NCBI GenBank assembly: GCA_965261395.1
Contig: OZ253462.1
Location: 5,152,001-5,216,000 of the forward strand
Origin: Candidatus Latescibacterota bacterium
GTDB lineage: Bacteria > Latescibacterota > UBA2968 > UBA8231
Reading direction: 5' to 3'
DNA: 64,000 nucleotides
Shown piece by piece: positions 1,476-17,392 of this stretch. The translations under genes were made by a program, and so were the position numbers. The notes under the pieces were generated by a model. It did not search any database and was not told the DNA's origin. It saw only the letters and a list, made by a program, of their open reading frames with translations. Each line of letters starts with the position of its first letter. Position 1 is the stretch's first letter.

Positions 1476-1500
1476 CTGATTTATTCCTTGAATAAATCAG
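1476..1500. terminator. Perfect 11-bp inverted repeat at the vapC stop (putative terminator or stabilising hairpin)
   Basis: CTGATTTATTC-CTT-GAATAAATCAG; AT-rich stem, no clear U-tract. Confidence 0.35.
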
Positions 1501-1943
1501 CTCCCCGTTTGTTCGTCCGATTCTCCGTTCTCCCCTTGCAGCACGGACGCCTCTGGTGAGAGCAGCAGCAATCCCGCCACGGATGCGAAGTGGCGATCCA
1601 TCGAGACCAGTCGCAAACCGTGCTCCATAGCCAGCGCCGCAATCCAGATGTCGTTCGTCGGGATCGGGGTTCCAGATCTCCTCAAGCCGTCGAGGATCTC
1701 GGCATAGAACTCGGCTGTATCCTCGCTGACGCCGCATATAGACACGCGCCGTGTATCGAGGAACTCGGCCAGTTCCTCGCGGTTTTTGCGTTCCTGTGTC
1801 CCGCCCTTGAAACCTGATAGCAGCTCCCCGATGCTGATCGAACTCAGCACGATTCGCGAGGCTCGCCGGAGCAGGGAGACGACCGCCGGATCTGCGCGCA
1901 TCGCGTGCGAGTAGATGTTGGTATCGATCAGAAATTCGTTCAC
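1497..1943 (-). CDS. vapC: PIN-domain toxin, VapC family
   Basis: IDTN N-terminal motif, ISIGELL, PIPTNDIWIAA, LVSMDRHF acidic PIN residues; GTG start overlaps the antitoxin stop (GTGA). Confidence 0.9.
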   Translation of the reverse strand: MNEFLIDTNIYSHAMRADPAVVSLLRRASRIVLSSISIGELLSGFKGGTQERKNREELAEFLDTRRVSICGVSEDTAEFYAEILDGLRRSGTPIPTNDIWIAALAMEHGLRLVSMDRHFASVAGLLLLSPEASVLQGENGESDEQTGS

Positions 1944-2212
1944 TGCCACAATTCCGAATCAATGCGCCGCTCGGAATCGATCTTCTGCTGAATCTGGGTG
2001 AACTCATCCTCGTCCCAGCGTCCGAACAGGTGATCCAAGTCGTGATGGACCTCGGTGAACCGACGGGATTTGTCCAATCCAAACTGCTTGCGGAGGGCGT
2101 CCAGCGCCGTCTGGTTCACGCTCTTTCCTTCCCGCTCGGCCACCTCCCTCAACTTGGCGGCAAGCTGGGGATCTAGTCCACGTAGGGTCATGCTTTTCAG
2201 AACATCGGCCAA
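1940..2212 (-). CDS. Ribbon-helix-helix antitoxin (VapB/FitA-like)
   Basis: SMTLRGLDPQLAAKLREVAEREGKSVNQ RHH pattern, directly upstream of vapC; AAGGAGG RBS ahead of TTG at 2212. Confidence 0.8.
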   Translation of the reverse strand: MADVLKSMTLRGLDPQLAAKLREVAEREGKSVNQTALDALRKQFGLDKSRRFTEVHHDLDHLFGRWDEDEFTQIQQKIDSERRIDSELWQ

Positions 2213-2251
2213 GGCGTACCTCCTTGAAATGCAACGAATATGTGATGGCGA

Positions 2252-2289
2252 TATGATTTCATTATATGAGATCATACTTTACTAATCAA
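2252..2289 (-). promoter_or_regulatory. Sigma70-type promoter of the TA operon with overlapping operator palindrome
   Basis: Minus strand TTGATT (2289-2284), 17-bp spacer, TATAAT (2266-2261); inverted repeat TATGATTTCA/TGAGATCATA (2252-2261, 2267-2276) straddles the -10. Confidence 0.7.
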
Positions 2290-2374: not shown

Positions 2375-3334
2375 CTAGCCTCCGACCCGCCCGCCATACA
2401 GATCCCGCACCCGACTCACCACCACGGCCAACAAGATGATCGACCCCAAAAACGCCTGCTCGTAATAGATGTTGGCCTCCAGCATCACCAAGCCGTTCTT
2501 GATGAGGACGATGATGACCGCCCCCAGTAAAAGGCCCAGCGCCGAGATGCGCCCGCCAGCCAACCCAGTCCCGCCGACAATAGCCACCGCAAAGCTGGTG
2601 ATCAGCCAGTCCTTACCCGTCGCCGGTTGCGCCGAGCCCATCCGCGAGACCCACAACACCGCGGCTAGCGCACCCACTCCGCCCGACAGCACGTGCGACA
2701 ACAAAATCATCCGATCGGTATTGATCCCCGCCAGCCGCGCCGCCTCCTGATTCCCCCCGGTCGCCAACAACCGCCGCCCAAAGACCGTATGCCGGAATGC
2801 GTAGTGCGTCGCCAGCAGCACCAGCCCCATCGCCCAGAACAAATTCGACAGTCCCAAAAACTTCTGCCGTCCCAAGAAAGTGAACTCCCGGGGAATGTCC
2901 GTGTAGGCGTAGCCTTCGGAAAACCCATGCACCAGCCCTGTAAAGACAAAAAGCGTCGCCAGCGTGGCGATAAAGGAATTGATCTGCAACCGCGTGATGA
3001 TGATCCCATTGACCCACCCAGCCACGCCGCCGATCCCCAGCGCCACCAGCGCCGCCAACCACCCCGGCAACCCCAACACCTGGATGCAGTACCCAGTGGT
3101 GATGGTCGCCAAGCCGCCGACGGCCCCCACGGATAGATTCATCCCCCCGGCGACCAGCACCACCGCCTGAGCCAGCGCCACCAACACCGAAAAAGCGACG
3201 ATCCGGGAGACGTTGAAGAGGTTGTACGCCGACAGAAAGCTCTCCGAGCTAAGCGCACATCCCACAAACAGCAACCCCGCCGACAAGGCAATTCCGGCAT
3301 CGTTGTGCCGCATGAGTTTGCGTAGATATTCCAT
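2375..3334 (-). CDS. Sugar ABC transporter permease (RbsC-like)
   Basis: Hydrophobic ~319 aa; GGMNLSVG, FIATLAT, EAA loop (GGNQEAARLAGINT), AVAIVGGT. True start is MEYLRK at 3334, just after the displaced ATPase stop. Confidence 0.9.
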   Translation of the reverse strand: MEYLRKLMRHNDAGIALSAGLLFVGCALSSESFLSAYNLFNVSRIVAFSVLVALAQAVVLVAGGMNLSVGAVGGLATITTGYCIQVLGLPGWLAALVALGIGGVAGWVNGIIITRLQINSFIATLATLFVFTGLVHGFSEGYAYTDIPREFTFLGRQKFLGLSNLFWAMGLVLLATHYAFRHTVFGRRLLATGGNQEAARLAGINTDRMILLSHVLSGGVGALAAVLWVSRMGSAQPATGKDWLITSFAVAIVGGTGLAGGRISALGLLLGAVIIVLIKNGLVMLEANIYYEQAFLGSIILLAVVVSRVRDLYGGRVGG

Positions 3335-3336
3335 AG

Positions 3337-3415
3337 TCAGTTTAGATGGTGGCCGATGGAGCGGCTTATCTCGTCGTAGCTCAATCCCCGCTCGTGGATC
3401 TCGGCGACTTCGTGG
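3337..3415 (-). repeat. Direct repeat copy 1: displaced 3' end of the ABC ATPase gene (79 bp)
   Basis: 76/79 identical to 10198-10276; encodes HEVAEIHERGLSYDEISRSIGHHLN-stop and abuts the permease start. Confidence 0.95.
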
Positions 3416-3466
3416 GATAAGAGGAAAATTCGGCCTCAATTATCGAAGGAAGTAGGGCGAACAAGG

Positions 3467-4768
3467 CTACCCAATCACAAAGCTGTCATCAGCATACCGT
3501 GATAGCTGCTCTACTTCGTCGCAAAACTTTTCGTAGTCTCTCAGGGCTATAGGCCGGTAGTGAGCTAGTTCAGTACGGATCCGCCACGAACAATTCACTA
3601 AGCGTTGCCATCTTCGCTCTGTACTCAACTCTCGGCGCTGCAGTAAAGATTTCAGATGCCCCCACTGACAGGCAAAAGGCGTATTGATTACTTCCTGAAG
3701 CTCTCTATCTGTTTCCGGTTTTTGCCACCTATGAGGCCAATCCTGTCCATAAGACCGGTTTAGGTGGTCACACAAAGCCAACCGTGTTTCGTCAATTTGG
3801 GGTAGGAGAAATCCAGCCTGACCTCGCCACAAGCGGTGGTCTAAGGCTTCTTGTCGATTCAACAGAGCCAAGACCGCGCTGTGGCATTCCAAACCGTATT
3901 CCGGAGTCCAATGCACCATCCCCTGGGCCCAGGCCTGGTACAAAGTAGCTGACAACGGCCAGCTCTCCAGCCAAGATGTCGCGTCCTGGGGAAGGTTATG
4001 CACTGGCCAAGCCTCCAACTCGGCCTGATTCCAGCCGCGGTCCTGAGCAAAGGCCCGCAGCACGCACGCCAATTCGGCTCCAGTATGATGCACCTTAGCC
4101 CACAGATAATCGCCCAAGTCCAAGTCAGAACCCGCAATGGCCGGAATCGTATGCTCTTTCCAGCGGCTCAAGGGAGCAGCATCCTGCTCGGAGGCCAATT
4201 GACACAACAGCCGCATTTCCAAGGTCGTGGGGATGCCCCGCCAGACCTGGATAGACAGAAACACATCAGTTAGGGGAGGTGGATGAGGGACCTTCGATGC
4301 TTGGGCCAGCAGACACAGCGCCGGGGGGATCTCGGGGCCATCTTCGTCAGTGGAGTGCCTGCTATGGCATACCTGAGCCCACTGCACCATAAATTGCAGC
4401 CATTGAACTCGGGCTTCTTCAGCCAGTCTATCAAAACCATCGAGAAACAGAACTTCAGGCAAGCCTGCTTGTTTTAAGAGATTCCCCACCGTGCGTGGTG
4501 TAGTGGAAGCACCCCAATCCACTCCCAGAGCTTGGCCTAAAGCCGCCGCTGGAGTTTCGGCGTCTAACTGGGATATGAAGATCTCGTGGATATGCAAGTG
4601 CAAGTGTCCGAGACCATCCCACAAAGCCGACCGTAGCAGGCTTGGATCAACTCCTTCGGGCAGCAAGCCCAACACACTGTGGCCGCGCCGCAATTCCTCC
4701 AGTAGCCGGTTCAGTAGCTGCTGGGCAGTGGGCATCTGCATGAGGGAGGTAGCCAGTCCCAAGCTCAT
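3467..4768 (-). CDS. Hypothetical 433-aa protein: degenerate P-loop/STAND-like N-terminus and putative C-terminal HEPN-like domain
   Basis: Coupled (ATGA) to the large ATPase; Walker-B-like VLFLDGFD with no Walker A lysine; helical C-terminus with R-T-E-L-A-H (3560-3577). ORF is solid, function is inference. Confidence 0.7.
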   Translation of the reverse strand: MSLGLATSLMQMPTAQQLLNRLLEELRRGHSVLGLLPEGVDPSLLRSALWDGLGHLHLHIHEIFISQLDAETPAAALGQALGVDWGASTTPRTVGNLLKQAGLPEVLFLDGFDRLAEEARVQWLQFMVQWAQVCHSRHSTDEDGPEIPPALCLLAQASKVPHPPPLTDVFLSIQVWRGIPTTLEMRLLCQLASEQDAAPLSRWKEHTIPAIAGSDLDLGDYLWAKVHHTGAELACVLRAFAQDRGWNQAELEAWPVHNLPQDATSWLESWPLSATLYQAWAQGMVHWTPEYGLECHSAVLALLNRQEALDHRLWRGQAGFLLPQIDETRLALCDHLNRSYGQDWPHRWQKPETDRELQEVINTPFACQWGHLKSLLQRRELSTERRWQRLVNCSWRIRTELAHYRPIALRDYEKFCDEVEQLSRYADDSFVIG

Positions 4769-7700
4769 AGAAGGCCAGCGACTCGACCCAAGACGGGCTC
4801 GGCGCTATACTCCCCGTCCCTATTTCCAATACACCCCAGTCGGCGCAAAAATTCCACAGCCGCCTTGCAGCCCTCTGGAGTGAGAGGCGGATCCCCTTCA
4901 ATCAAATCCCCCAAAGTCTCTAAATCCGCATCTGAGACTTTGTCGCACTCAACTAGCGTCTTTAATACTCGGAAAGGCTCCGCCTGAGCATCCAGCCCGA
5001 CCTGCTGTAACAACTTATAACCTAACTCCGACCTTGGCTGGTCCATCTCCTCGACCAGCATTTCTGCATAAGATCGAGGATCATCATCGACGGCGCACCG
5101 GCGTAAAAGGTCGTCCAGCAAGAAAGGCCATCCCCCAGTAGCTTTCAGCACCTTCTGGCAGACCTCGGACGAATCCAGCTTACCGGCTTGGTTCAACCGC
5201 TGCTGAATTCCCACTTCGTCCCAGCGACGCAGATAAATTGGGTCAGCCCGGTTTTCCAGATCGGTCCGCCGGTCCGCAGGCAACTTCAGCCAAGCCCAAA
5301 CAGCCTCTGGATTGAGAAAGAAAACCACCTGCAGGGGCCGTCTTCGCCTTTGGTTAAAGTCTTTGCACTTCTCCAATACTTTCCAGACGCATTGGGCCAT
5401 ATCGCCCCCTGTGCCCCTGAGCCGGCCATAGGCCAATACCTGCTCGATCCCTTGTTGCTTTTGGGCGTGGGAATCCAACCACGCACAGGTCCGATTGGCT
5501 TGGGTCAATTCTTGGGCAGGGATCTCACTTCCCCGCTTTAAGGCTTGGTCTAGCAACTCCAGCCCCAATGCTTGGGAGCCAAAGATTAAACTCACGCCGG
5601 ACGACCGAGTTTGTTGCAAACGGCCTTCCTGCACTAGCGTTAAGGGGCTGTACAGACGGTTCTCGGCATCTAGCAACAAATGCTGACTGTCGGATTGGGA
5701 TTGGGTCGGCTGAGATTTATCAGACAGCTCTAGCAAACGGTTCTCTATATCCTTCTCGGTACCCATGAGACGGACCAGATTGGGACTGCGCAACAGGTAC
5801 CGGTTTTCTAAATTGCGTACCAATATGCCCAGACCAACCATTTCTCCCAGCAACCCTCTCAAACTTTCGGTATCGACTTCTTTGAAGCCTTGAGACCACC
5901 ACTCTTGCGCTAGTTTGAGGAGTTCGGCCACGCTAAATGGGCGGACATAGCTATCGCGCGTCTCTTTTTGCTCACAGATCATGGCCCAAGCGATGCACTG
6001 ATACCGGGGGTCCAGTGCCAAGGTCCAGTCGAGCCGTTCCCGAATGACCTGCCGAGCTGATGGGGAGCGATATACCGCCTCCACATCATCCGATCTCACT
6101 TCATAGGGCGGTCCCGACGAGGGCCTTTTGGCTTGGAGCCGACGCACGAGTTCATGGCAGAAGTACTGTATCAAACCCGGATGGTAATTGGTGTAGGACA
6201 GGACTTTGAGCACCGTGGTCTCATCGACGAACCGATAGCCCAATGCCCTTAGGGGATCCCGCACCAACTGCCGGGCCGGCCTAGCTTCGAGGGGCCCCAC
6301 CAGTAGGTTCTGGCCGAAATGGGCCAGAGGCTGGTTCGCGATATTGTTAAAACGCTGAACGTCGTGCAGACCAGTAAAGACCACCTTGAAGCGCGATTGA
6401 GTATCCTGCATCAAGGTTCGCAAGCCGTTGACCACTTGGAAACCTTCCCGAGCATCGGCGTTGAGAAAGTGGTCGGCTTCGTCAAACATTACTAGAACTT
6501 TCCGTTGGGGAGACTCAGTGATCGCGTTCTTGATGTGTTTGATGATATTGTCAGGTTGAGTCGCCTTTATACTGTCTTTTATCAGCGAGAGTTTCTTAAA
6601 ACCATCGCGCAACTTGATCCACAACTGAACGGGCTGTTCGCCTGTAAGGGGATCTCCCACTAGCTTGATGTCCTCAACCCAAGCGAATTGCTCGCTGTCG
6701 GGCTGGTGAAATTCGCGCTCCACTTGGCGCAACAGTGCGGATTTTCCCAACTGTCGCCCGCCGAATACGATGCAGCTACCCTCGTTTTGTAGTTGACGGA
6801 CCATCGCGTCGCGGCCGTAGTATATTTCAGGCGGTACATTTCCCGCTTGGAACGGCGTATAGGGATTGAGGGCAGAATAGGGCAAGCTACAACGCAGGAA
6901 AGCTGGAAGGCGGGTGTCGTCAGACTTGGCCAAAAATACCAGCAGGATTTCGTCTAGTACCACTATAGCCAATTCCCGTTCTCTGGCCTGGGCGGCTATG
7001 TCGCGTCGCCGCCGGTCGGTCAATCGCCCAAGAAAAAAAATAATAACCGTCTTAGTATCTAGTCCTAAGTCGTGCAAAAACGCTCCGATGGAGGCAGCTC
7101 CAGGTTGTTCCCATAAACACACCACATTGTAGCAGCCGCTGGCTTGCGAGCCCAACTGCGGGATGGGCCGAGCCAAGTCGCTGGCCGAGGCATCCACCTG
7201 ACAGTAGAGCCCATCTTGGCCGGACCTCTTGAGGCGCACGACTGATTCTCCCTCCGGCAGATGAAAACCGAGGTAAGCCAGCAGGACTGGGATATGCCGA
7301 TGGGCTGCCTTTGACTGGCCCTGTTGGCGTTTGAGTTGGTGCCAAGCTTTAAGTGCCTTGGCTGCCTCGTCCCGGCGTGCTTGGGGCAATGTGCCAAACG
7401 GCACACCTTCCCACGTTTGGCCTTGCTCAATCATACCGGCCAATTGATTGACATTCCCCAAGCTGCTAAGCCCCGATTCGATGCTAGGAAAAGCCTCTTG
7501 GAACTCCTTAAAGATGTCTCGCTCGTCAGGTGGGACAAACCACTCGCTCTCGCCTCGGAGGATTTCCCGCAAACGGACCAAGCCTTCTTCCACTACCATA
7601 GTATCGCGCTGATCGAAAGCTCTTTGAATAAAGGCTTCCACGGCGTCAAGTTGATCCGCTTGGGACGATTGCGCTAGATCTTGCCGCATATCCGTCCATT

Positions 7701-10050
7701 GATCCTCCAACTCTTGCAGTCGGTCTGCGAGCTTTTGTTCCAATTGCTGTCCAATATCATTTAACCGCCCGAACAGAGGTCCGAAGCACAAAGGATCTTC
7801 AACAGCCACTAGTTCCAATTCAGTAGTGAGACCGGCGCGCTCTTCTTCAAAGAGCAACCCATCCACCACCCTCTGTTCGATAGCCCCCTTCACTTCGTTG
7901 ACTCGGTCCGCTAGCGCCGCCCGGACACCCTTGAGATTATCGTCGTTTAGGTCTTCGATCTCTCGGCGATCTTCATCGTTCTCCAACGCATTCCACAATA
8001 CGTCGGTGAAGCGAAAATCCTGGCTTTCAATCCGCAGGATGCAAGCCTCGCGGGGAGAGCGTCCCACAGCCAGAGATTGACGCAAGGCCTCAGCAATATT
8101 GGCCCTATAGGCCTCTTCAGGATGGCCCTCTTCGTCGAGGGGGATTTCGGGCATCCACAACAGGCGGCGGGCTAAAGCCTCCTCCAGTGAGCCATTTTCG
8201 CGCTTCATCCATACCTCGAGGTCTTCAATATCGGGCTGCTCCTCTATGCCTAGCATACCTGTTACTTGGCCTATGGCCCGCTGCAGAACACGGCCCAAAG
8301 CGGCTTTTTCCTGGGGTTGGTCCTGCGCCTGCATTTGCTCGAGTTCGGCATTGACGGCGGGGAGGACATCCTGTACTTGGCGGCGCAAATCCTTTACATG
8401 ATCGCTCCACCAGTCGCCCTTGTAATGGGGGTCCTGTTTCTGCGCAATCAGGGAACACCAGCGGTGGGCCAGACCGACGGCCTCTTCGACACTGCGCACC
8501 AATTGATCACGAGGAACCCCTGTGATTGGTCTGGATGGGCGGGCAGATGTCCGCTCTTGGTCAATCTGGCGGATGAGTTCTACAATCTGCTTGCGCTCCT
8601 TGAAACCGCTCATGCACTGCCGGACCTGATCGACTTGGTCGGCCTGATTTTCAATTACCGGAGTGAGTAGGCGGGTCAAGTCGCCATCTTGGTCCACCAA
8701 GCGGTGCAGTACGTTTGTCGCCCTTAGCATTTTTAGCTTACGGTCCTGATTATTCTTTAAGAGGCGGAGGGCTTGCTCAATGGTTTCTTCGATGCCCTTC
8801 TCGCGAGTTTCCATGCCTTCGGCCCCCTTTAGATCTTCGGCCCGCAAGGGATAGCCCGCTGACGCAAAGGTGCGGACGGCATCGGCAAGCGTACCCAGCG
8901 CGGGATTGATTTCATCCCTTTGAGGGAGCCAGCCGACCAAACCGGTGCACTGCGGGGCAACCAAACTAGGGCGTAGGGCCGCAGCCAACCCCAGCAACCG
9001 CTCGGAAGTAGTATTTTGGGGAGCCCACTCCGAAGCAATTTGCAGGATATCGAAGACCAAACTGTCGGTATCGTTTTTCAACCAGCGCGACCCCTGAAGC
9101 ACGGCAAGCAATTCGGGGGCGACCAGTACGTCGCGGCCCGCTACTTTCAAGGAGCTAGCTAGCCAGTAGGCTCCGGCCCAATCCCCTTCGGCCAAGAGGC
9201 TCCACCCCAACGATACCCAGTGTTCATCGGAATCGTCTTCTTGCAACAGGAGTGCCACATCCCGGACCGAGCGCAAGGGCAGCGGCTTTCCGTCAGGGAG
9301 CTGAGGTTCAGGTGGGGTAGTCTGGATGTGCGTTGGCTCGTGCTCTTCAGACTGGGGTAAGGGTTCAGGCTTGGCTTCTTCCTCGGGAGAGCTGGACTCC
9401 TCTTGGGGAACCTCTGCAGATGGGCTGACGTCTTCTTCGGCTTTTTGCTCTTGATCGGAATCAGGGGAATCACTAGAAGGGCCTTGTCCGGGACTAGTCG
9501 GTTCCGGGGAAGGTTGATCACCCTCTTCGGTATCTTCATCCAAAATCTGTGGAGGCTCCGGGGTGGTCGCGGAAAAATCTTGGTCGAGTTGTTTCAACAG
9601 TGCGCTGATCTCAGCTTCCACGGCATCCAAGTCCGTTCGATGCTTTCTGGCTTCCTGGTAATTTTGGGGGTGTTGCTGGGTCAAAGTTTGGCGTTGGTCC
9701 AGTTGTGCCAGCAGGTTCTCCACCGTCTTCGTCCGCTCGGGAACCCACTTGATGGGACAGCGGGTCGCTTGCCAGTGAGCTAGATCAGAGTTATCGAAAT
9801 TAAAAAACGCGAGAGTTTCCTCGTGATTTTTCCGCAATTGATCGAGGGTCTGCTGGAGTTGGAACCGCCCGGCCTCTTCTCGTTCTTGGCATTTCTGCTC
9901 AGCTATGAGCTGGACTTGGTCGATAAACCCTTGGACTTGAACTCCTTCCCATTCTGGAGCATCGGAAGGCCACTGACTCAATTCCTCAATCAAACTAGTC
10001 CACTGAGTATCTTGGAGGCTCTCCGTACTCTGTGTCTTTTCGTCGGACAT
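4765..10050 (-). CDS. Large STAND-like AAA ATPase (1761 aa) with long helical/coiled-coil N-terminus and a second degenerate NTPase module
   Basis: NPY..YYGR pre-P-loop, Walker A GGRQLGKS (6739-6762), Walker B VLVMFDEAD, sensor VVFTG, TNYHP (GxP-like); later SLIFGSQALG and ATGGWP; GAGGA RBS. Confidence 0.85.
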   Translation of the reverse strand: MSDEKTQSTESLQDTQWTSLIEELSQWPSDAPEWEGVQVQGFIDQVQLIAEQKCQEREEAGRFQLQQTLDQLRKNHEETLAFFNFDNSDLAHWQATRCPIKWVPERTKTVENLLAQLDQRQTLTQQHPQNYQEARKHRTDLDAVEAEISALLKQLDQDFSATTPEPPQILDEDTEEGDQPSPEPTSPGQGPSSDSPDSDQEQKAEEDVSPSAEVPQEESSSPEEEAKPEPLPQSEEHEPTHIQTTPPEPQLPDGKPLPLRSVRDVALLLQEDDSDEHWVSLGWSLLAEGDWAGAYWLASSLKVAGRDVLVAPELLAVLQGSRWLKNDTDSLVFDILQIASEWAPQNTTSERLLGLAAALRPSLVAPQCTGLVGWLPQRDEINPALGTLADAVRTFASAGYPLRAEDLKGAEGMETREKGIEETIEQALRLLKNNQDRKLKMLRATNVLHRLVDQDGDLTRLLTPVIENQADQVDQVRQCMSGFKERKQIVELIRQIDQERTSARPSRPITGVPRDQLVRSVEEAVGLAHRWCSLIAQKQDPHYKGDWWSDHVKDLRRQVQDVLPAVNAELEQMQAQDQPQEKAALGRVLQRAIGQVTGMLGIEEQPDIEDLEVWMKRENGSLEEALARRLLWMPEIPLDEEGHPEEAYRANIAEALRQSLAVGRSPREACILRIESQDFRFTDVLWNALENDEDRREIEDLNDDNLKGVRAALADRVNEVKGAIEQRVVDGLLFEEERAGLTTELELVAVEDPLCFGPLFGRLNDIGQQLEQKLADRLQELEDQWTDMRQDLAQSSQADQLDAVEAFIQRAFDQRDTMVVEEGLVRLREILRGESEWFVPPDERDIFKEFQEAFPSIESGLSSLGNVNQLAGMIEQGQTWEGVPFGTLPQARRDEAAKALKAWHQLKRQQGQSKAAHRHIPVLLAYLGFHLPEGESVVRLKRSGQDGLYCQVDASASDLARPIPQLGSQASGCYNVVCLWEQPGAASIGAFLHDLGLDTKTVIIFFLGRLTDRRRRDIAAQARERELAIVVLDEILLVFLAKSDDTRLPAFLRCSLPYSALNPYTPFQAGNVPPEIYYGRDAMVRQLQNEGSCIVFGGRQLGKSALLRQVEREFHQPDSEQFAWVEDIKLVGDPLTGEQPVQLWIKLRDGFKKLSLIKDSIKATQPDNIIKHIKNAITESPQRKVLVMFDEADHFLNADAREGFQVVNGLRTLMQDTQSRFKVVFTGLHDVQRFNNIANQPLAHFGQNLLVGPLEARPARQLVRDPLRALGYRFVDETTVLKVLSYTNYHPGLIQYFCHELVRRLQAKRPSSGPPYEVRSDDVEAVYRSPSARQVIRERLDWTLALDPRYQCIAWAMICEQKETRDSYVRPFSVAELLKLAQEWWSQGFKEVDTESLRGLLGEMVGLGILVRNLENRYLLRSPNLVRLMGTEKDIENRLLELSDKSQPTQSQSDSQHLLLDAENRLYSPLTLVQEGRLQQTRSSGVSLIFGSQALGLELLDQALKRGSEIPAQELTQANRTCAWLDSHAQKQQGIEQVLAYGRLRGTGGDMAQCVWKVLEKCKDFNQRRRRPLQVVFFLNPEAVWAWLKLPADRRTDLENRADPIYLRRWDEVGIQQRLNQAGKLDSSEVCQKVLKATGGWPFLLDDLLRRCAVDDDPRSYAEMLVEEMDQPRSELGYKLLQQVGLDAQAEPFRVLKTLVECDKVSDADLETLGDLIEGDPPLTPEGCKAAVEFLRRLGCIGNRDGEYSAEPVLGRVAGLL

Positions 10051-10197
10051 ATCATATCCTCAATTCTATGTCTATTTGGTTTTCGGGTTGGAGTATAAAA
10101 AGAAATGGTATTTGCCCGTAAGATAGTCTGTCTGGTTTCGGGGATGTTCCCTCGACCCGGAGAGCTTCCTGCGGGTATACAATCTCTTCCATTTGGC

Positions 10198-10276
10198 TCA
10201 ATTCAGATGGTGGCCGATGGAGCGGCTTATCTCGTCGTAGCTCAACCCCCGCTCGTGGATCTCGGCGACTTCGTGG
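10198..10276 (-). repeat. Direct repeat copy 2: functional 3' end of the ABC ATPase gene
   Basis: Matches 3337-3415 at offset 6861 with three synonymous differences. Confidence 0.95.
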
Positions 10277-11706
10277 ACGATCTGCTTTTCCTTAAAGACG
10301 AGGATCCTTCCCGCCAAGCCGATGATCTCCGGCATGTCCGACGAGATCAAAATGATGGCCTTGCCTTCTTTGGCCGCCAAATCCCACAGCAAGTGGTGGA
10401 TCTGTGCCTTGGCTTGGATATCCACCCCGACGGTCGGCTCATCGACGATCAGGATATCGCACTCGGCCGCCAGCCACTTGCCCAAGCTAACTTTCTGCTG
10501 ATTGCCGCCGCTGAGGTGGTTTACCTCCTGCTCTAGGCCGGTGGTGCGAATATCCAGCGCCGCGACCAACTCCTGCGCGGCTTTGGTCTCCGCCCGGGCG
10601 TCGATCCGGCGGGTGAACTTGCCGACGATCCGCTCCCATATCGTAATGCCGAGATTGGTCCGCACGGCTGAGTCCAGCAGCAGGCCCTCTTCTTTGCGGT
10701 TTTCGGTTACGTAACCCATGCTGTATTTGTACAGGCTGTCGGCCACCGAGCCGATCCGCGCTTTGGCTCCGTTGATATAGACGGCCCCGCGCTCGGCCTG
10801 CTCAGCCCCCACCAGCAGCCGCGCCAGCTCGGTGCGCCCGGCCCCCACCAAGCCGTACAAGCCCAAAATCTCGCCAGCGTAGAGCGAAAAGCTCACGTCG
10901 TGTGCTCGGTCCGCTGCGTACAGCCCCTCGACCCTGAGCACCTCCCGCTCCCGATCCACTGCTGGCCTGCCAAACGAAGTCGTCTCCGCGCGACGGCCGA
11001 TCATCATCTCAATAAGCTCGGCGCGCGGCAGCCCAGCCAATTCCCTCGTGCCCACGTGTCGCCCGTCCCGCAATACGCTGACTTGGTCGGCGATCTGATA
11101 GACCTCGTCGAACTTGTGCGAGACAAAGACGATGGCCACGCCCGTCTCCTGCAACTGACGCAAAATGCCAAAGAGGCGGGCCGCTTCGTGCTCAGTAAGC
11201 GACGACGTCGGCTCGTCTAACAGCAGAACCCGTGCCTCGGCCGACAGCACCCGAGCGATCTGCACGAGCTGTTTGTGGGCCGCGCTTAAATCGCCAATGG
11301 GCGCTTGCGGGTCAACGTCCAGCCCGATCCGCGCCATCGCGGCCCGCGCTTGGTCGCCGAGCCGTGGCCAGTCGAGGCGGCCCCACCGGCTGAAGGCGTC
11401 TAGCTTGTCGAGCATGATATTCTCGGCGACGCTGGCCTCAGCCACTACTTGGATCTCCTGATGGACGAGGCCAATGCCTTGGTCGAGGCAGTCGCGACAG
11501 TTGCGCACGCGCAGCGACGCGCCGTTGAAGAGCATCCGCCCGGCGTCGGGCTGGTATATTCCGGTGACAATTTTGAGCAGGGTGCTCTTGCCAGCGCCGT
11601 TTTCGCCAACTAGGGCGTGGATCTGGCCCGGCTGGAACGAGAGCGACACGTCGTCCAGTGCTCGGACGCCGGGGAAACGCTTGCTGATGGATTGCAGTTC
11701 GAGCAC
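10198..11706 (-). CDS. Sugar ABC transporter ATP-binding protein (RbsA/MglA-like, two ABC domains)
   Basis: GENGAGKST, LLLDEPT, VSHK, LSGGNQQK, IVDEPTVGVD. Confidence 0.95.
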   Translation of the reverse strand: MLELQSISKRFPGVRALDDVSLSFQPGQIHALVGENGAGKSTLLKIVTGIYQPDAGRMLFNGASLRVRNCRDCLDQGIGLVHQEIQVVAEASVAENIMLDKLDAFSRWGRLDWPRLGDQARAAMARIGLDVDPQAPIGDLSAAHKQLVQIARVLSAEARVLLLDEPTSSLTEHEAARLFGILRQLQETGVAIVFVSHKFDEVYQIADQVSVLRDGRHVGTRELAGLPRAELIEMMIGRRAETTSFGRPAVDREREVLRVEGLYAADRAHDVSFSLYAGEILGLYGLVGAGRTELARLLVGAEQAERGAVYINGAKARIGSVADSLYKYSMGYVTENRKEEGLLLDSAVRTNLGITIWERIVGKFTRRIDARAETKAAQELVAALDIRTTGLEQEVNHLSGGNQQKVSLGKWLAAECDILIVDEPTVGVDIQAKAQIHHLLWDLAAKEGKAIILISSDMPEIIGLAGRILVFKEKQIVHEVAEIHERGLSYDEISRSIGHHLN

Positions 11707-11709
11707 GGA

Positions 11710-12723
11710 TCAGCGCGGCGGGCTAAGATATTTAGTCTCTAACTCGCCCATAATCCGCGTGGTGATGGCCATGATTTCGTCCTCGAAGGTATCGACGTTA
11801 TCCTTGGTCACCAGCACTGTGCCCGAGTTGACGAAGTAGTGGTCGGGATTGGCCTGCCAGCCGTCGAGCAAGTAGCTCAACAGCGCGCACGTGATGTAGC
11901 CGTGGCCATAGGGGTTTTGCGAGATAGTCGCGTCGATGGCCCCCTCGCCGATCGCGTCGAGTACCACCGGGTCCGTGTCGATGCCGACGAAGTGGATGCG
12001 CTTGTTATCCGGGGTTTGGTTCCACTCCGACAGAATGGTCGCCGCGGCCACGGTCGGCGTGTACCCCGTGCAAATCACGCCGTCGATCTCCTCGATCCGT
12101 GCCGAGAGCGCGCCCTGGATTTTGGCGGTGCTGGTCTCAATCGACTCCATGCCGGCAATTTCCTGGATGATCTGGACCGCTGGGTATTTGGCCACCGCCG
12201 CCTCGACGCCTTCTTTGCGCAGGATGGTGTTGGGGTCTTCGACCAATTCGAGCACGTTGAGGATGCTGCCTTTGCCGCCCATAAAGCCGATCAGCGCCTC
12301 GGTGGCCTCCATCGCCGCCTGTTTTACATCGGTCGCCACGCAAAATGAAGCGGGCGTCGGCAGCGTCGTCGGCGCTCCATAGCTGACGACATAGGCCCCG
12401 TGTTGCACCAATTCCTCGTAGAGTCCGTTGGCGGCGCTGGCGTCGGCTGGGTAGAGCGAGAAGGCTTTGTAGCCTTGGGCGGCCAGTGGCTCGACATTGG
12501 CGTTTTCGTTGTCCTGGGTCCAAGTCTGGCCGATCTGGCGCTTGATCTTGGTGCCGGTGTCGCGCTCGTAGCCGATCACCCCTTTTTGTACCTGTTCGAC
12601 ATAGGGATGCACCATCAGGGCATACCAGACGATTTTTTTCTCCGTGGGCTTGTCGCCAGATTCGCCAGACCCGCCGCACCCGACGGCAACGAGCGCGGCG
12701 ATCCAAATTAGTAGCAAACGCAT
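11710..12723 (-). CDS. Sugar ABC transporter substrate-binding lipoprotein (RbsB-like)
   Basis: Lipobox VAVGC; periplasmic binding protein type I motifs (FVGIDTD, ATISQNPYGHGY); AAGGAG RBS; first gene of the ABC operon. Confidence 0.9.
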   Translation of the reverse strand: MRLLLIWIAALVAVGCGGSGESGDKPTEKKIVWYALMVHPYVEQVQKGVIGYERDTGTKIKRQIGQTWTQDNENANVEPLAAQGYKAFSLYPADASAANGLYEELVQHGAYVVSYGAPTTLPTPASFCVATDVKQAAMEATEALIGFMGGKGSILNVLELVEDPNTILRKEGVEAAVAKYPAVQIIQEIAGMESIETSTAKIQGALSARIEEIDGVICTGYTPTVAAATILSEWNQTPDNKRIHFVGIDTDPVVLDAIGEGAIDATISQNPYGHGYITCALLSYLLDGWQANPDHYFVNSGTVLVTKDNVDTFEDEIMAITTRIMGELETKYLSPPR

Positions 12724-12738: not shown

Positions 12739-14430
12739 TTAAGGTTTCTCAATATAACCAGATAACCATCCCTGCGCCCCTTGAGCCAATACCCGCTTTG
12801 GCCTGCCTTGCCGTCCGACCCCCAAAGCCACAAGAGACGCCGCCCAGCGCGTCTCGCAGTCGGCAATTTGGTCGGCTGAGCGCGCGCGGGGGAACACTTT
12901 AACTTGCCCGGGGGCGACGAGGCGGACATTGGGCTGGAAGCACTCTACATAACCGGCCGGCGGCGTGCGCTCGTGGGCCATCATGCGCTTGGCTGCCGGC
13001 TCGGGGGGCGTGCGGGCGATGACGTAGTCGTTGAGGCCGTGGATGTCGAGGATGTTGATGTGGGGCAGGTGCCAGGCCGGGATGCCGATGGCGGGAAAGA
13101 AAAAAACCGGATGGTCGGCCGAAGGCAGAAACTGACCCTGAGCACGCGGCGGGAACATCCCGGTGAGGAACTGCGCATTGGCTTTGTGTTCTTGGTGGCG
13201 GATGCAGACAAAGCGGTCGATGAGCCAGTATTGCAGATCGTCAAAAGCAGCGGCGTACCAGCGGATTGGAGCGGGAAAGTGAGGGGCCACAGGCACTTTG
13301 AGTTGCAAGGTCTGGCCGCGGCTGGTGATGTCGCGAGTCTGGGACCAATGGATCCAAGGAATCGGCCAGGAGAGCACCACCGCGAGGCCGAGGGCAGCAA
13401 GCGCTTTTTTTGGTTGGACTCCCACGGCGTTTAAGCACCACGCAAAGGCGAGGTAGCACAAAGGCACCAAGTGCGCGTAGATCCGGTACTCAAAGTGGTC
13501 GCCGCCGTGAACGAACGTGTAGTACGCAGCGTGTCCGCACAGTGTAAGCGCGGCCAGCAGCCCATGCCAAGACGGCCTGAGCACCTCCTTCTTTTTCCAT
13601 AGCACATAGACCAAAAGCAGACCCCACGTCCACAAGGCGTATTCGAGGGCAAAAGAGAGCGCGTAGCGGAGGCCGCTGGCCGGCCAAGCTCCGACAGCTT
13701 TGGCGTAGTAGGTATTGGGCAGCCATTCGCCGTAGAAGCTCTGACGCCAGATCAGATGCAGTGGCGCGACCAGCAGGGGCAGAGCTTGGGTGAGCCGCCC
13801 AGCGGGATAGCAGCCGGTGCGCCAAGCCCACAAGAGCGCGACAGCCGTGGCACCGAGGAAGAGCAGACCATCGGGCCGCGTCAGATAGATACCAGCGGCA
13901 GCGGCGGAAATGGCTAAAGGCCATCTTTGGTGGCTAGGAGCAACAAAAGCGCAAGCGTAGGTCCAAGCGAGCACCAAGCAACCAAACAGCGCCGTTTCCA
14001 AGCCCGAACTGCTCCAAGCCAAAAAGGTGCGGTTGGTAGTCACCGCGAGCAGCAAGAGGGAGAGGAAGACCAAGCGATAGGGGCGCAGCCCAGGCGACCA
14101 AGGCAAGCGCAGCAGCATCTGTGAAGCGATGTACAGCGAGCACAGCGCAAAGCACAGGGCGAGATAGTTGGCCGCCTCGGGAGGGTCAACGCCCAAGATC
14201 TGCCAAACCCCATAGAGCAGGGCGATCCACAGAAAATTGGTGTAGCCTTCAACCGGACGAAACGGGGGCGGGTTCCACACCGGGCCGTAGCCCAAAGCCC
14301 AGTTGCTTATGTAGCGGAAGGAAATGTAGGCATCGTCGGTGAGGAACCAGTACAGTTTCCAGCCATAGCAGAGCACGGCACCAGCTAACAGCAGGAGCAA
14401 AGCGTAGAGCAGGCGTTGGCGCTGGTTCAT
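12739..14430 (-). CDS. GT-C superfamily membrane glycosyltransferase (AftB/PMT-like)
   Basis: DDAYISFRY..N..G.G.VWN...VEGYTNFLW, SSGLET, TRPDG, PNTYYAK, DIHGLND; ATG 14430 overlaps the upstream stop. Confidence 0.75.
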   Translation of the reverse strand: MNQRQRLLYALLLLLAGAVLCYGWKLYWFLTDDAYISFRYISNWALGYGPVWNPPPFRPVEGYTNFLWIALLYGVWQILGVDPPEAANYLALCFALCSLYIASQMLLRLPWSPGLRPYRLVFLSLLLLAVTTNRTFLAWSSSGLETALFGCLVLAWTYACAFVAPSHQRWPLAISAAAAGIYLTRPDGLLFLGATAVALLWAWRTGCYPAGRLTQALPLLVAPLHLIWRQSFYGEWLPNTYYAKAVGAWPASGLRYALSFALEYALWTWGLLLVYVLWKKKEVLRPSWHGLLAALTLCGHAAYYTFVHGGDHFEYRIYAHLVPLCYLAFAWCLNAVGVQPKKALAALGLAVVLSWPIPWIHWSQTRDITSRGQTLQLKVPVAPHFPAPIRWYAAAFDDLQYWLIDRFVCIRHQEHKANAQFLTGMFPPRAQGQFLPSADHPVFFFPAIGIPAWHLPHINILDIHGLNDYVIARTPPEPAAKRMMAHERTPPAGYVECFQPNVRLVAPGQVKVFPRARSADQIADCETRWAASLVALGVGRQGRPKRVLAQGAQGWLSGYIEKP

Positions 14431-16202
14431 CGTCCGCTGCGGAATACTTGGTCGGCGGCCAAGTCGTAGTAGTCGGCCCGAGTACCATCCGGCCAGCGGA
14501 TTTCGAGATGCTCTACGCGGGCGCAAGTCCCCAAGCCAAAGTGGAGGCGCGGATCGCTGGCCGACAGATAGCTGCCACCAGCGGCAACGGTCCGCATCTG
14601 CTGGTGGCCATCGCATAGCAGGCGGACGCGGGCACCGGCCATTAGCCCCTCCACCAAGAGCCAATGGGAACGAGGTGGCAGGTCGTTGCGGTAGAGAGCC
14701 ACCGGACCGCTGGCGTGGGTGACCAACAAGTCGAGGTCGCCATCGGCGTCGTAGTCGCCATACGCTGCGCCACGCGAGACCGCGGCCTGAGCAAAGGCCG
14801 GGCCAGCCGCCGCCGACACATCGCGGAACCGGCCGCCGCTATTGGCGAAAAGCTGGTCGGGTTGGGCGTAGCGGAGGTCTTCTTCGAGAAGCTGAATCCG
14901 GTCCATGACATGGCCGTTGGCGACGAAGAGGTCCAAGTCGGCGTCGTTGTCCGCATCGAAAAACAAGGTTCCAAAGCCCAGGGGGCGCAGGCTCGGATCG
15001 GCGAGGCCGCTAGCGGCTCCGCTATCGGTGAAGCGGTGAGCACCGTCGTTGCGATAGAGCGTATTGCTCTCGCGCGAGAAGTTGGTGACAAAAAGGTCCG
15101 GGTCGCCGTCCGCGTCAACGTCGCCGGCGGCCACGCCCATGCCGGCCTCAGCTTGGCCGTTGCTGTTGTACGCAGCCCCAGCGGCGAGCGCGATATCGAC
15201 GAAGATGCCGCCGTCGTTGCGGTAGAGCGCATTGCGCACTCCGTCGTTGGCCACGTAGAGGTCCATATCGCCATCGGCGTCAAAGTCGCTGGCCAGCGCC
15301 CCCAAGCCCTTGCCAAAGCGGTTGAAGACCCCCGCCTGTTCAGTGACATCGACAAAGGTGCCGCCGTCGTTGCGGTAGAGCACATCAGGGACGCCATTGT
15401 AGCGGCGCGGGCTGCAATAAGTGCGGAGTGCGAAGGGAATTTTCAGCAGCTCTTTACGCCGGCGCTTGGGGGTGATGGTGCCGCCGCAAACGCGGTTGTT
15501 GGCTGGGTAGAAGTCGAGGTAATTGGCCGCGTAGAGGTCGAGGTCGCCATCGTTATCGCAGTCGAAGAACAGGGCACTGGTGCTCCAGCGCGGATCCCCC
15601 ACACCGGCTTTTTCGGTAACATCGACAAACGCGCCACCATCGTTGCGATAGAGGACGTTGGGGCCGTAGTTGGTGACGTAGAGGTCTGGGTCGCCATCCG
15701 CGTCAAAGTCGCCGACGGCCACGCCCATGCCATAGCCGGTATCGCCCGCCCCGGCTGCACCTTCTACCGCGCAGAATGTCCCGTCTCCCTCGTTGCGGTA
15801 GAGTCTATTTCCCTTGGATGGATGGGTGGTGGCCGAGGCAACTTGGTAGGCACTCTCATCAACTAGCCCCTTGAAGCTCAGACTGGGCCGGTAGTCCTTT
15901 TCTACCCAGTAGTGGGTCTCATCGCGGTAGCTGAGGTTGATCGGCGGATACTGGCCGCGCAGATGCGACAAGTCGAATCCATCCACCAAGTAGATGTCGA
16001 GCCAGCCATCTTGGTCGTAGTCGAGAAAAGCCCCGCCAGCGCCCATGGTCTCAATGAGAAAGTAATCGCCCGCCGCGCCGTTGGTGTAGGTAAAATCGAG
16101 ACCAGTATCCTCGACCACCTGGAACGGACCAGGAAGGGCGGGTGGAGCAGGCTCGCAGGCGGCGCAGATCACCACTAGCAGCAACAAGCGAGTCATTATC
16201 AT
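14427..16202 (-). CDS. CRTAC1-family (FG-GAP/VCBS repeats + ASPIC/UnbV) lipoprotein
   Basis: ETMGAGGAFLDYDQDGWLDIY, repeated DxDxDGDxDLYV, GGSYLSASDPRLHFGLG; lipobox-like ICAAC. Confidence 0.9.
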   Translation of the reverse strand: MIMTRLLLLVVICAACEPAPPALPGPFQVVEDTGLDFTYTNGAAGDYFLIETMGAGGAFLDYDQDGWLDIYLVDGFDLSHLRGQYPPINLSYRDETHYWVEKDYRPSLSFKGLVDESAYQVASATTHPSKGNRLYRNEGDGTFCAVEGAAGAGDTGYGMGVAVGDFDADGDPDLYVTNYGPNVLYRNDGGAFVDVTEKAGVGDPRWSTSALFFDCDNDGDLDLYAANYLDFYPANNRVCGGTITPKRRRKELLKIPFALRTYCSPRRYNGVPDVLYRNDGGTFVDVTEQAGVFNRFGKGLGALASDFDADGDMDLYVANDGVRNALYRNDGGIFVDIALAAGAAYNSNGQAEAGMGVAAGDVDADGDPDLFVTNFSRESNTLYRNDGAHRFTDSGAASGLADPSLRPLGFGTLFFDADNDADLDLFVANGHVMDRIQLLEEDLRYAQPDQLFANSGGRFRDVSAAAGPAFAQAAVSRGAAYGDYDADGDLDLLVTHASGPVALYRNDLPPRSHWLLVEGLMAGARVRLLCDGHQQMRTVAAGGSYLSASDPRLHFGLGTCARVEHLEIRWPDGTRADYYDLAADQVFRSGR

Positions 16203-17392
16203 TAGCGCAGCTCTCGCCGCAGGGCCAAGCCGTAGAGTGAACACAACAAGGCCGCATCGGCCACCCACAACGCGCCCACTCCATTATACAACCGCCAGCT
16301 TGGCAACAAGGCAAAGCAGTACCCACTCGCCAGCACCGCCGAGCACACAATCGGCACTCGCCACAGCCAATGCGCCCGGGCGTCACCGAGCACCACCCAC
16401 AACGCCGCTTGGCAAAAGGGCAAGAAGACGAAGTAGTGAGGCCACGAGGTCGGCACCACAAACGGCAAGGCGATAAAGAGCGCCACCGCGGATAGGGCCA
16501 TCCGCTGCGCGATTTTTCGCTTGTGCAACCACCACACCACGACGCTGTTGGCGCAAAAGACCAGCACCCCTGCAAACCGCAGCGCATCGAGCGTCGATTC
16601 TAAAAGGCGATATCCCAGCGGCTGCCCCCAGCGGTTGAGTACATGGACAAAATACTGGGTATTAAAATCGCGCAGGAGCCGTGCCGCCTCCGGCAGCGAT
16701 TGTGCGGATGCGCGCTCGAAATACCACCAATCCACAGGCCCCAACAACGCGGCTGGCAGCAGACCGTAAAACCCTAATAAGCCAGCCCCGTAAGCCGCGA
16801 GAAAGCGCCCGTCGCGGCGGACGAAAAAATAGATGACAAATGCGCCGGGATAGTACTTGATGCAGGTGACCAGCGCCAACGCGATCCCTCCCAGCGCGCT
16901 CCGACCCTGCTGGTGCAGCGCCAACGCCGATACAATGCCAAGCGTCACTAACACACTGACCTGCCCCCATTTGAAATTGTGCAACAAGGGGAAGGAAGCC
17001 AGCAGCAACAACAAATAAACCAGCATGCCCCGAGCGGAGAGTCCGAGCAGATAGCGGCCCGATACATAGTAGAACACGGCCGCCCACCCCACCTGCAAAA
17101 ACCCCCACAAAACAGTCGCCGCCGCCAGCGGCAAGAGTGCCACAAGGCTCAGCCCCAACGCAAAAAACGAGGTATAGTAGTACCCCCGGACGGGCCATTT
17201 GTCGGCAAAAAGCACCTCGCCCATCGGATAATAGAAGCGCTGAAAATCGCCAAAGAGCTGCTCGCCGTGGTCAATGGCGTTGACAAACCCATCAACCGAT
17301 CCCCACAGCAGCCAATAGCTGCCAAGCACCAACCCCGCCCCCAGCAGGCCCAACCCACAACTCCGTTGCGGTTCTTTGTCAAAACCAAGCAA
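16202..17392 (-). CDS. Glycosyltransferase family 87 (DUF2029) membrane protein
   Basis: DFQRFY, YYYTSFFA, HNFKWGQVS, IKYYPG, SWPHYF; multi-pass hydrophobic. Confidence 0.75.
   Translation of the reverse strand: MLGFDKEPQRSCGLGLLGAGLVLGSYWLLWGSVDGFVNAIDHGEQLFGDFQRFYYPMGEVLFADKWPVRGYYYTSFFALGLSLVALLPLAAATVLWGFLQVGWAAVFYYVSGRYLLGLSARGMLVYLLLLLASFPLLHNFKWGQVSVLVTLGIVSALALHQQGRSALGGIALALVTCIKYYPGAFVIYFFVRRDGRFLAAYGAGLLGFYGLLPAALLGPVDWWYFERASAQSLPEAARLLRDFNTQYFVHVLNRWGQPLGYRLLESTLDALRFAGVLVFCANSVVVWWLHKRKIAQRMALSAVALFIALPFVVPTSWPHYFVFLPFCQAALWVVLGDARAHWLWRVPIVCSAVLASGYCFALLPSWRLYNGVGALWVADAALLCSLYGLALRRELR

Follow-up and report, generated by a model that had tools for sequence, protein, structure and literature searches.

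The question raised by this locus is what a pair of overlapping genes does inside a sugar transporter operon. The pair occupies positions 3467–10050 of a 64,000-nt stretch of contig OZ253462.1 (GCA_965261395.1, Candidatus Latescibacterota bacterium), hereafter the window, to which all coordinates refer. A first-pass annotation had read the two genes as a sensor/scaffold plus RNase effector pair, the sole cargo of a mobile islet and a candidate novel antiviral system. Our analysis indicates that the pair is probably a two-component STAND-type conflict system carried on a small mobile insert, most likely directed against phage and acting by abortive infection. This reading is carried by the strict linkage of the two genes, the folds predicted for the smaller protein and its catalytic-type motif, the accessory and mobile nature of the insert and the frequent presence of defence genes beside its relatives.

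Two linked genes and their predicted domains

The upstream gene of the cassette (4765..10050, minus strand) encodes a protein of 1761 aa (P0001, the large protein) and the downstream gene (3467..4768, minus strand) one of 433 aa (P0002, the small protein). Both open reading frames (ORFs) exist as first annotated and they overlap, the stop of the large gene and the start of the small gene sharing 4 nt (ATGA), an overlap that is conserved among loci. In 20 of 21 genome loci, the small gene is immediately preceded by the large gene in the same orientation; the remaining locus (L020) is a fragment. The same holds for 27 of the 29 metagenome loci (n=38 in all) with more than 160 nt of upstream sequence, and the two exceptions are weak partial matches. 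Homologues are therefore paired, as the first-pass annotation would have it. Fused forms are rare; a search for longer forms found a single 914-aa protein.

Residues 1–300 of the small protein (3869..4768, minus strand) are predicted to form an inactive ORC/Cdc6/STAND-like module made up of a nucleotide-binding-like domain, a helical domain and a winged helix, in which the NTP-binding motifs are eroded. In the predicted model, a HEPN-like (Swt1-like) helical domain (residues 301–433; 3470..3868, minus strand) follows directly after the winged helix. This model agrees with the earlier description of the small partner as an inactive NTPase followed by a helical domain. A PDB sequence search with the small-protein alignment returned nothing meaningful, and an hhalign comparison of the small-protein profile with the large-protein profile revealed no similarity (probability 0.3); the small-protein module is therefore not shown to be a paralogue of either large-protein module.

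The C-terminal domain carries an Rx4-6H motif with a polar residue after the arginine (R398-x4-H403; RTELAH, 3560–3577). R398 and H403 are invariant in 67/67 small proteins. Residue 399 is N in 50 of these, T in 16, including the window copy, and S in one, and the family consensus reads I-R-N-x-L-A-H-Y-R-P. According to the available part of Anantharaman et al. 2013 (PMC3710099), the HEPN motif is located at the end of the penultimate helix and in the loop that leads into the final one, and its arginine is followed by a polar residue. A domain-only model of the region (predicted local distance difference test, pLDDT, 85.6), which is a prediction and not a solved structure, places the motif in this canonical position: in domain numbering, helix 88–107 holds R103 and H108 opens the loop to the last helix (114–130), so that the motif closes the penultimate helix and opens the loop. 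The Pfam model PF18731 (HEPN_Swt1) matches 13 of 21 homologous C-terminal domains (best E value 4.3e-5), all below the gathering score. In a fold search of 48,161 chains, the top 50 include, by title, the HEPN toxin 7ae2, SO_3166 (5yep), 2hsb, Csm6 (4rgp) and Cas13bt3 (7vti); also among them are 2jpu, 1wwp, 1jog, 1ylm, Roquin (4txa) and AbiA (8oz7), which we take to be HEPN proteins. The nearest named Atlas clusters, in which 19 % and 26 % of members carry HEPN_Swt1 (scores 0.83–0.84), provide a lead only. Taken together, the motif, its position in the model, the recurrent HEPN_Swt1 matches and the Atlas lead make it very likely that this domain is a Swt1-like HEPN, with catalysis predicted at most. 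The first-pass call of an RxxxxH-bearing, HEPN-like domain is upheld in this form; its doubt about catalysis, raised on account of Thr in place of Asn, is not, as Thr is a subclade variant that is still polar and gives weak grounds for such doubt.

Within the large protein, residues 1076–1440 (5731..6825, minus strand) are, judging by motifs and a family hidden Markov model, an AAA+/STAND-type P-loop NTPase (AAA_22/AAA_16 type). Walker A (GGRQLGKS, 6739–6762) and Walker B (FDEAD, 6472–6486) are invariant in 35/35 aligned large proteins, as are H1290 and G1292 of a conserved YHPG motif, the GxP-like motif of this NTPase. Pfam AAA_22 matches residues 1088–1232 with 29.2 bits against a cut-off of 27 and is the sole family above threshold in the protein, with weaker matches to AAA_14, AAA, TniB, ATPase_2 and AAA_16. 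The intact NTPase reported earlier is thus confirmed. It is followed by a conserved C-terminal module without a Walker A lysine (residues 1441–1761; 4768..5730, minus strand; FGSQALG, TGGWP), for which a second NTPase-like fold has been proposed and in which S1492, G1496 and G1639-G1640-W1641 are invariant in the alignment of 35.

Upstream of the NTPase lies a strongly conserved alpha/beta-patterned domain (residues 925–1075; 6826..7278, minus strand; PIPQFGS, WERPG, YLGRL, VLDE). It is among the best conserved parts of the protein, with G967, D1033 and E1034 invariant across 29 sequences. Residues 261–924 (7279..9270, minus strand) form a conserved region, the presumed sensor/scaffold, with no Pfam, PDB-sequence or PADLOC match, and residues 1–160 (9571..10050, minus strand) a further region that is conserved by its profile and matches no family. 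Between these two lies the acidic Pro-rich linker of the first-pass annotation (residues 161–260; 9271..9570, minus strand), the least conserved stretch in the alignment of 35, in which the whole protein is otherwise conserved. Outside the NTPase, ~1,400 residues match nothing in Pfam, PDB-sequence, PADLOC or Atlas searches, and a PDB sequence search with the large-protein alignment gave nothing meaningful. We found no nuclease, protease, TIR or SIR2 signature in the large protein, no Pfam match to a TPR in either protein of the pair and no match of the Pfam nSTAND1 model to the window proteins at E≤1.

An Mrr-like restriction-endonuclease fold for residues 925–1075, an idea taken from the pattern ..YLGRLT..A..LAVLDE.LL.FL, found no support. 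Pfam returned scattered chance matches only on 29 sequences of the domain, and a PDB-sequence profile search gave what we regard as chance matches to RRF (E 0.02) and a prion protein (E 0.4). The Atlas search yielded no named cluster, and no (D/E)xK triad is visible in the alignments.

A total of 279 relatives of the large protein were found, of about 1,000–3,000 aa, with most full-length ones measuring 1,700–2,100 aa; precomputed Pfam assignments give nSTAND1 or AAA_16 for a few of them. The metagenomic relative P0178 (3003 aa) was considered as a fusion of the large and small proteins and proved instead to be an N-terminally extended large protein: it aligns to P0001 from residue ~28 and has an extra ~1,150 N-terminal residues with no Pfam match. 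In 6 of the 21 genome loci (L006, L009, L013, L015, L019 and L022), the large gene is broken into at least two tblastn pieces or frames, while the small gene is mostly whole.

These features bear on whether the HEPN domain is the effector at all. The locus could encode a conflict system in which the HEPN serves as a non-catalytic RNA-binding or sensing module and killing falls to the large protein, through either its alpha/beta domain or its N-terminal ~900 residues. The unmatched ~1,400 residues, the invariant D1033-E1034 pair in so well conserved a domain and the Thr of the window copy would fit such an arrangement, as would the suggestion, in the available part of PMC8195603, that inactive STAND modules are nucleic-acid receptors. 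However, a catalytic site predicts exactly the invariance of R and H seen in the family, inactive HEPNs usually lose these residues (PMC3710099, in the part available), and the large protein shows neither an effector signature of the kinds listed above nor a (D/E)xK triad. We therefore regard a non-catalytic HEPN as rather unlikely.

Mobility of the cassette and its insertion sites

The 6,782-bp insert (3416..10197, minus strand) comprises the two-gene cassette, a 147-nt leader that runs from the stop of the preceding ATPase gene to the start of the large gene (10051..10197, minus strand) and a 51-nt 3′ tail (3416..3466, minus strand). It lies within a sugar-type ABC operon, directly after the ATPase gene (ABC_tran; 10198..11706), which is itself preceded by a binding-protein gene (Peripla_BP_4; 11710..12723), with the permease gene (BPD_transp_2; 2375..3334) on the other side. 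A 79-nt direct repeat brackets the cassette, its copies being 96 % identical. The right copy (10198..10276) is the last 79 nt of the intact ATPase gene, while the left copy (3337..3415) is an orphan ATPase 3′ end that abuts the permease start (ATG at 3334); both carry window-specific variants not present at empty sites. GC content is 0.52–0.57 inside the insert versus 0.59–0.65 outside. Pfam and tRNA scans of the insert detected no integrase, transposase or tRNA gene.

The insert is missing from the orthologous operon of congeners. A search of 61 same-family genomes with the ABC ATPase led to 14 orthologous loci in other genomes, whose gene neighbourhoods were mapped. In 9/14, the binding-protein, ATPase and permease genes are contiguous, with no insert. 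Of the other five, one resembles the window in having the large gene after the ATPase, one carries the cassette ahead of the ATPase, one has another, single gene between ATPase and permease, one is rearranged and one is cut off by a contig edge. Each junction in the window can be aligned to the unoccupied site of both G054 (ATPase 96 % identical) and G058, which reveals a clean 6,782-bp insertion plus duplication. The direct repeat, the empty congener sites, the GC contrast and the lack of recombinase genes together bear out the earlier claim that the pair is the sole cargo of a mobile islet. A tRNA-targeting island is ruled out, as the window holds no tRNA gene.

Among the contigs of four sequencing runs, none joins across the insert. 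The summed depth of the flanks exceeds that of the insert in runs X6 and X8, a difference that related organisms may explain and that carries no weight as evidence. Over window positions 3900–7300, runs X1, X3 and X6 contain contigs with a second cassette allele whose differences are clustered and which accounts for about one-third of the summed depth in X1; this suggests co-existing strains with diverged copies.

Part of the flanking sequence is common to cassettes in different genomic contexts, namely the last ~45 nt of the leader, including GAGGA, and the 51-nt tail (L002, L004, L010 and L019), and these stretches therefore travel along with the cassette. A consensus scan, the only method applied here, found no sigma-70-like site on the coding strand of the leader. 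Short stretches of host sequence are likewise duplicated at the junctions of other copies in the ABC operon. The ATPase 3′ end is duplicated over 22 nt in L005 and 18 nt in L003, and the permease 5′ end over 51 nt in L009. In L006, where the cassette sits at the junction of the binding-protein and ATPase genes, the duplication covers about 22–30 nt of the binding-protein gene 3′ end. At the ATPase–permease junction, congeners carry a second type of cargo, a single AAA_16/ATPase_2/nSTAND1 gene of 395–443 aa with no PADLOC match (L053:2130-3461, L006:13168-14355, L008:12838-14058 and L009:2511-3698). This gene is accompanied by a permease 5′-end duplication of 22 nt in L006 and 10 nt in L053, and no duplication was detected in L008. 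The ABC operon thus looks like an insertion hot spot for STAND-type genes. In L002, the cassette lies outside any ABC operon and is followed by a degenerate ATPase 3′ end and a 92-aa permease 5′ fragment (11299-11620), as though pieces of its earlier surroundings had moved along with it.

Cassettes at other loci occupy further housekeeping operons, and in 18 of 21 loci the cassette is co-oriented with the nearest upstream ORF. In an Entotheonella metagenome-assembled genome (L014:3558-12269), it exactly separates the classically coupled genes def (peptide deformylase) and fmt (formyltransferase), with no flanking repeat detected; in L011, L013 and L015, it lies between TamB and DegT.

The recurrence of one host operon invites the idea that the pair is a housekeeping RNA-processing or regulatory factor tied to the sugar transporter, given that the same operon houses the cassette, always co-oriented, in the window and in L003, L005, L006, L007 and L008. 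The operon is nevertheless intact without the cassette in the nine congeners described above, the contexts in other phyla are unrelated (def-fmt, TamB-DegT, restriction-modification (RM) genes, BREX/SIR2-HerA) and only 13 of 168 genomes of the phylum have the cassette at all. A housekeeping role is accordingly highly improbable, the empty sites nearly excluding it.

Some further features of the window were noted. Directly downstream of the permease is a VapBC-like toxin–antitoxin pair (1497-2275, minus strand), in which a FitA-like ribbon-helix-helix protein (1940..2275) comes before a PIN-domain protein (1497..1949, E 5.6e-16). A 143-aa ORF (10105-10536, plus strand) runs antisense to the 3′ part of the ABC ATPase gene and is most likely a shadow ORF of a GC-rich gene. 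FG-GAP/ASPIC (UnbV)-repeat proteins (14427-16268, minus strand; 17521-19206, plus strand) flank a glycosyltransferase-like membrane-protein region and have no relation to the cassette.

Distribution, neighbours and proposed function

The family to which the small protein belongs is large and without annotation. We found 88 relatives, none with a name or Pfam domain, and a profile search of 1.84 billion representatives (50 % identity clusters) returned 1,428 at E≤0.001, including 412 at E≤1e-30. The best 150 of the 1,428 representatives are 290–460 aa in length (most 405–445 aa) and are matched nearly end to end, with a few shorter, partial ones; 10 sampled clusters are all metagenomic and lack a protein name. 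Named hosts are Latescibacterota, Binatia, Entotheonella, Caldilineaceae and other Chloroflexota, Armatimonadota, Blastocatellia (Acidobacteriota), Gemmatimonadetes (Gemmatimonadota) and NC10. The distribution is patchy: each of the 13 matching genomes of the phylum, the window genome included, has one copy, and within the window's own genus, the profile matches 7 of 30 other species. A tblastn search of plasmids found no relative.

Neighbours were defined as lying within three ORFs of the cassette, called by a greedy script at ≥90 aa; 111 genome-locus neighbours were scanned by Pfam, and PADLOC was applied to 28 genome-locus proteins (17 neighbours from the 21 loci and 11 proteins from L053 and L054) and to 42 proteins of metagenome lineages. 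Known defence genes stand beside the cassette in 12 of 32 loci, comprising 6/21 genome loci and 6/11 metagenome lineages. The genome loci encode type I HsdM/HsdS (L004 and L019, the latter also with Vsr and Dcm), BrxL, SIR2 and HerA (L017), a mad8-like gene (L018), a Dsr2-like gene two ORFs further up (L014) and DrmD (L008). In the metagenome lineages (L058, L067, L070, L075, L079 and L082), the neighbours are RmrA/CapP, DndH-like, ZacB/ZacC, type I RM with HEC-06/Orf5, DUF1848, PDC-M16, NsnA and RecD-like genes; L063, L066, L073, L087 and L088 have none. As raw counts, these agree with the expectation that relatives would be found near defence genes.

Based on these data, we propose that the large protein may act as a sensor and ATP-driven switch and the small protein as an adaptor and effector. 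The ~1,000-residue N-terminal part of the large protein, together with its alpha/beta domain, would recognise an invader cue, whereupon its single intact AAA_22/STAND-type NTPase would drive oligomerisation. The Walker-A-less STAND-like module of the small protein would dock on, or co-assemble with, the large protein, and the assembly would bring single Swt1-like HEPN domains together into an active RNase that cuts cellular or viral RNA, such that growth of the infected cell stops. That the two proteins bind, that they assemble in an ATP-dependent manner, that the HEPN domains dimerise and act as an RNase, and that the system answers to such a trigger and protects from phage are steps that we infer from established knowledge of STAND NTPases and HEPN RNases and from the prediction in PMC8195603. 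A predicted complex of large-protein residues 1076–1761 with small-protein residues 1–300, made without control runs, gave an ipSAE of 0.00 and counts neither for nor against binding. The first-pass proposal of a sensor/scaffold and RNase effector pair thus stands with regard to the very probable HEPN, the strict pairing, the mobile accessory nature and the defence neighbours, whereas its RNase activity, binding and antiviral effect keep the standing of predictions.

Several points weigh against a conflict system of this design. A full-text literature search found no bench study of a two-gene STAND plus HEPN anti-phage pair, and the real effector could lie in the ~1,400 large-protein residues without a fold match. 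The window copy scores below threshold against PF18731 (E 0.045; 14.5 bits versus a gathering score of 27.5; profile positions 18–112 of 115). No model in PADLOC (E≤0.01), NCBIfam or PHROGs matches either protein, and IMG/VR contigs contain no relative. The neighbour counts are raw, with no background rate, and derive from our own greedy ORF calls with partial PADLOC coverage. The window copy and several relatives reside in housekeeping operons (sugar ABC, def-fmt and TamB-DegT) rather than in defence islands. Finally, the split large genes could reflect decay or (long-read) assembly error.

The last two points also touch on a different explanation, in which the pair is a selfish addiction module: a HEPN toxin restrained by the ATPase would stabilise the insert, and any anti-phage effect would be secondary. 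An insert that is mobile, patchy and situated inside essential or useful operons suits this explanation, as do genomes in which the large gene is apparently frameshifted and the small gene kept; free HEPN proteins are, moreover, toxins of toxin–antitoxin pairs in the available parts of PMC11586414 and PMC7641770. However, an antitoxin of 1,761 aa that retains a conserved active NTPase would be out of the ordinary, the pair lacks an MNT-type partner and defence genes are frequent neighbours. We consider addiction an improbable primary role, and it and the anti-phage reading are not mutually exclusive.

If the pair is indeed a two-component anti-phage system, then a widespread antiviral system has been missed by current annotation: PADLOC 2.0, NCBIfam 20.0, Pfam and PHROGs hold no model for either protein beyond the generic AAA_22 match, and the family is found mainly in uncultured phyla (Latescibacterota, Binatia, Entotheonella, Chloroflexota, Armatimonadota and others). 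The occupied and empty congener sites, with their target duplications of variable length, offer natural material on how small defence cassettes enter operons without disruption. A bolder extension, which we think unlikely to hold in its entirety, would place the pair in a very large family of two-component immune ATPases that lacks annotation and comprises at least 1,428 clusters (50 % identity), in which one active and one or two dead STAND-like modules distributed over two proteins assemble to switch on a Swt1-like HEPN RNase. The same extension would have the cassette be a promoter-poor, operon-embedded unit that enters co-transcribed housekeeping junctions co-oriented, leaves host duplications of 10–79 nt and carries no recombinase of its own, an undescribed route for the spread of defence genes.

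Comparison with known systems

In Avs (AVAST) systems, one polypeptide carries both the effector, at its N terminus, and a TPR-like sensor, at its C terminus. Here, in contrast, the putative effector belongs to a second protein, fused to a dead STAND module, and the presumed sensor precedes the NTPase; neither a PADLOC Avs match (E≤0.01) nor a TPR was found. The pair also differs from type VII HEPN-MNT systems, its partner being a 1761-aa ATPase with no match to a nucleotidyltransferase family. The PrrC/RloC anticodon nucleases offer a closer parallel in that a P-loop-type module regulates a C-terminal HEPN-type RNase in abortive infection, although in PrrC/RloC one chain holds both the nuclease and an active ABC-type NTPase domain, and no sequence or fold match to them was seen here. 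In these enzymes, H and R are needed for activity (PMC3710099, in the part available). The same part of that paper (Anantharaman et al. 2013) describes the Swt1/Abi2-clade HEPN RNases, including the Ava_2192 type, with which the small protein shares an R-N-x-x-A-H type motif and the weak recurrent PF18731 matches. In the Ava_2192 type, the HEPN is likewise joined to an AAA+-type module and the genes lie beside restriction-modification genes; the domain order, however, is reversed, since in the present family an inactive ATPase-like module occupies the N-terminal side and a second, giant protein supplies the active ATPase.

The closest counterpart is the nSTAND2 operon of Kaur, Iyer, Burroughs and Aravind (eLife 2021; PMC8195603), a computational prediction of a mobile two-gene counter-invader operon in which both proteins have STAND modules. 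In the available part of that paper, one STAND has eroded NTP-binding motifs and is fused to a GT4 or a HEPN domain, and the authors propose a hetero-multimer. An upstream gene described as '??+STAND+wHTH' (wHTH, winged helix-turn-helix) is followed by an inactive STAND+wHTH+...+HEPN gene, and the window pair shows this same order, the gene with the active STAND coming first and the one that joins an inactive STAND to HEPN second. The HEPN-bearing nSTAND2 members are 486–640 aa long, with TPRs between the winged helix and the HEPN, and the GT4 versions 736–768 aa; the only exceptions to a proteobacterial origin are one Calditrichaeota STAND+wHTH entry and two entries that are short fragments or partial. 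Compared by description, the present family differs in its small protein of ~425 aa, which lacks TPRs between winged helix and HEPN, in its large protein of 1,700–2,100 aa and in its named hosts, which belong to phyla other than Proteobacteria. For neither nSTAND2 nor the present family did we find a bench study in the literature on nSTAND2, iSTAND or 'inactive STAND', which yielded comparative genomics only.

It may be asked, then, whether the pair is a divergent branch of the published nSTAND2 system and no new kind. Gene order, logic and mobility are the same as far as the available text of PMC8195603 goes, and by eye, the inactive modules share a motif order (a Pro-rich degenerate P-loop, an acidic Walker-B-like strand and a GG.P-like motif). 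Against this, the lengths, TPR or GT4 domains and nearly uniform proteobacterial hosts of the published members in that text are not those of our family, in which the best 150 of 1,428 representatives are 290–460 aa, the HEPN comes right after the winged helix and the named hosts are other phyla. None of the 88 small-protein relatives (candidate range 238–758 aa) has an nSTAND2-type architecture, and the negative plasmid and Pfam nSTAND1 searches point the same way. We therefore hold membership of nSTAND2 to be a tentative and somewhat unlikely, though serious, classification. As for the first-pass view that the want of a PADLOC hit supports novelty, PADLOC indeed has no model for the pair, whereas the word novel goes too far in light of the predicted two-gene operon of STAND and inactive STAND-HEPN proteins (PMC8195603). 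The pair is not categorically new: its logic had been predicted computationally, with kinship judged by description. If our reading is correct, it provides a bench-ready case for that computational idea, in which an inactive STAND module would serve as the adaptor that delivers a HEPN RNase to an active STAND switch.

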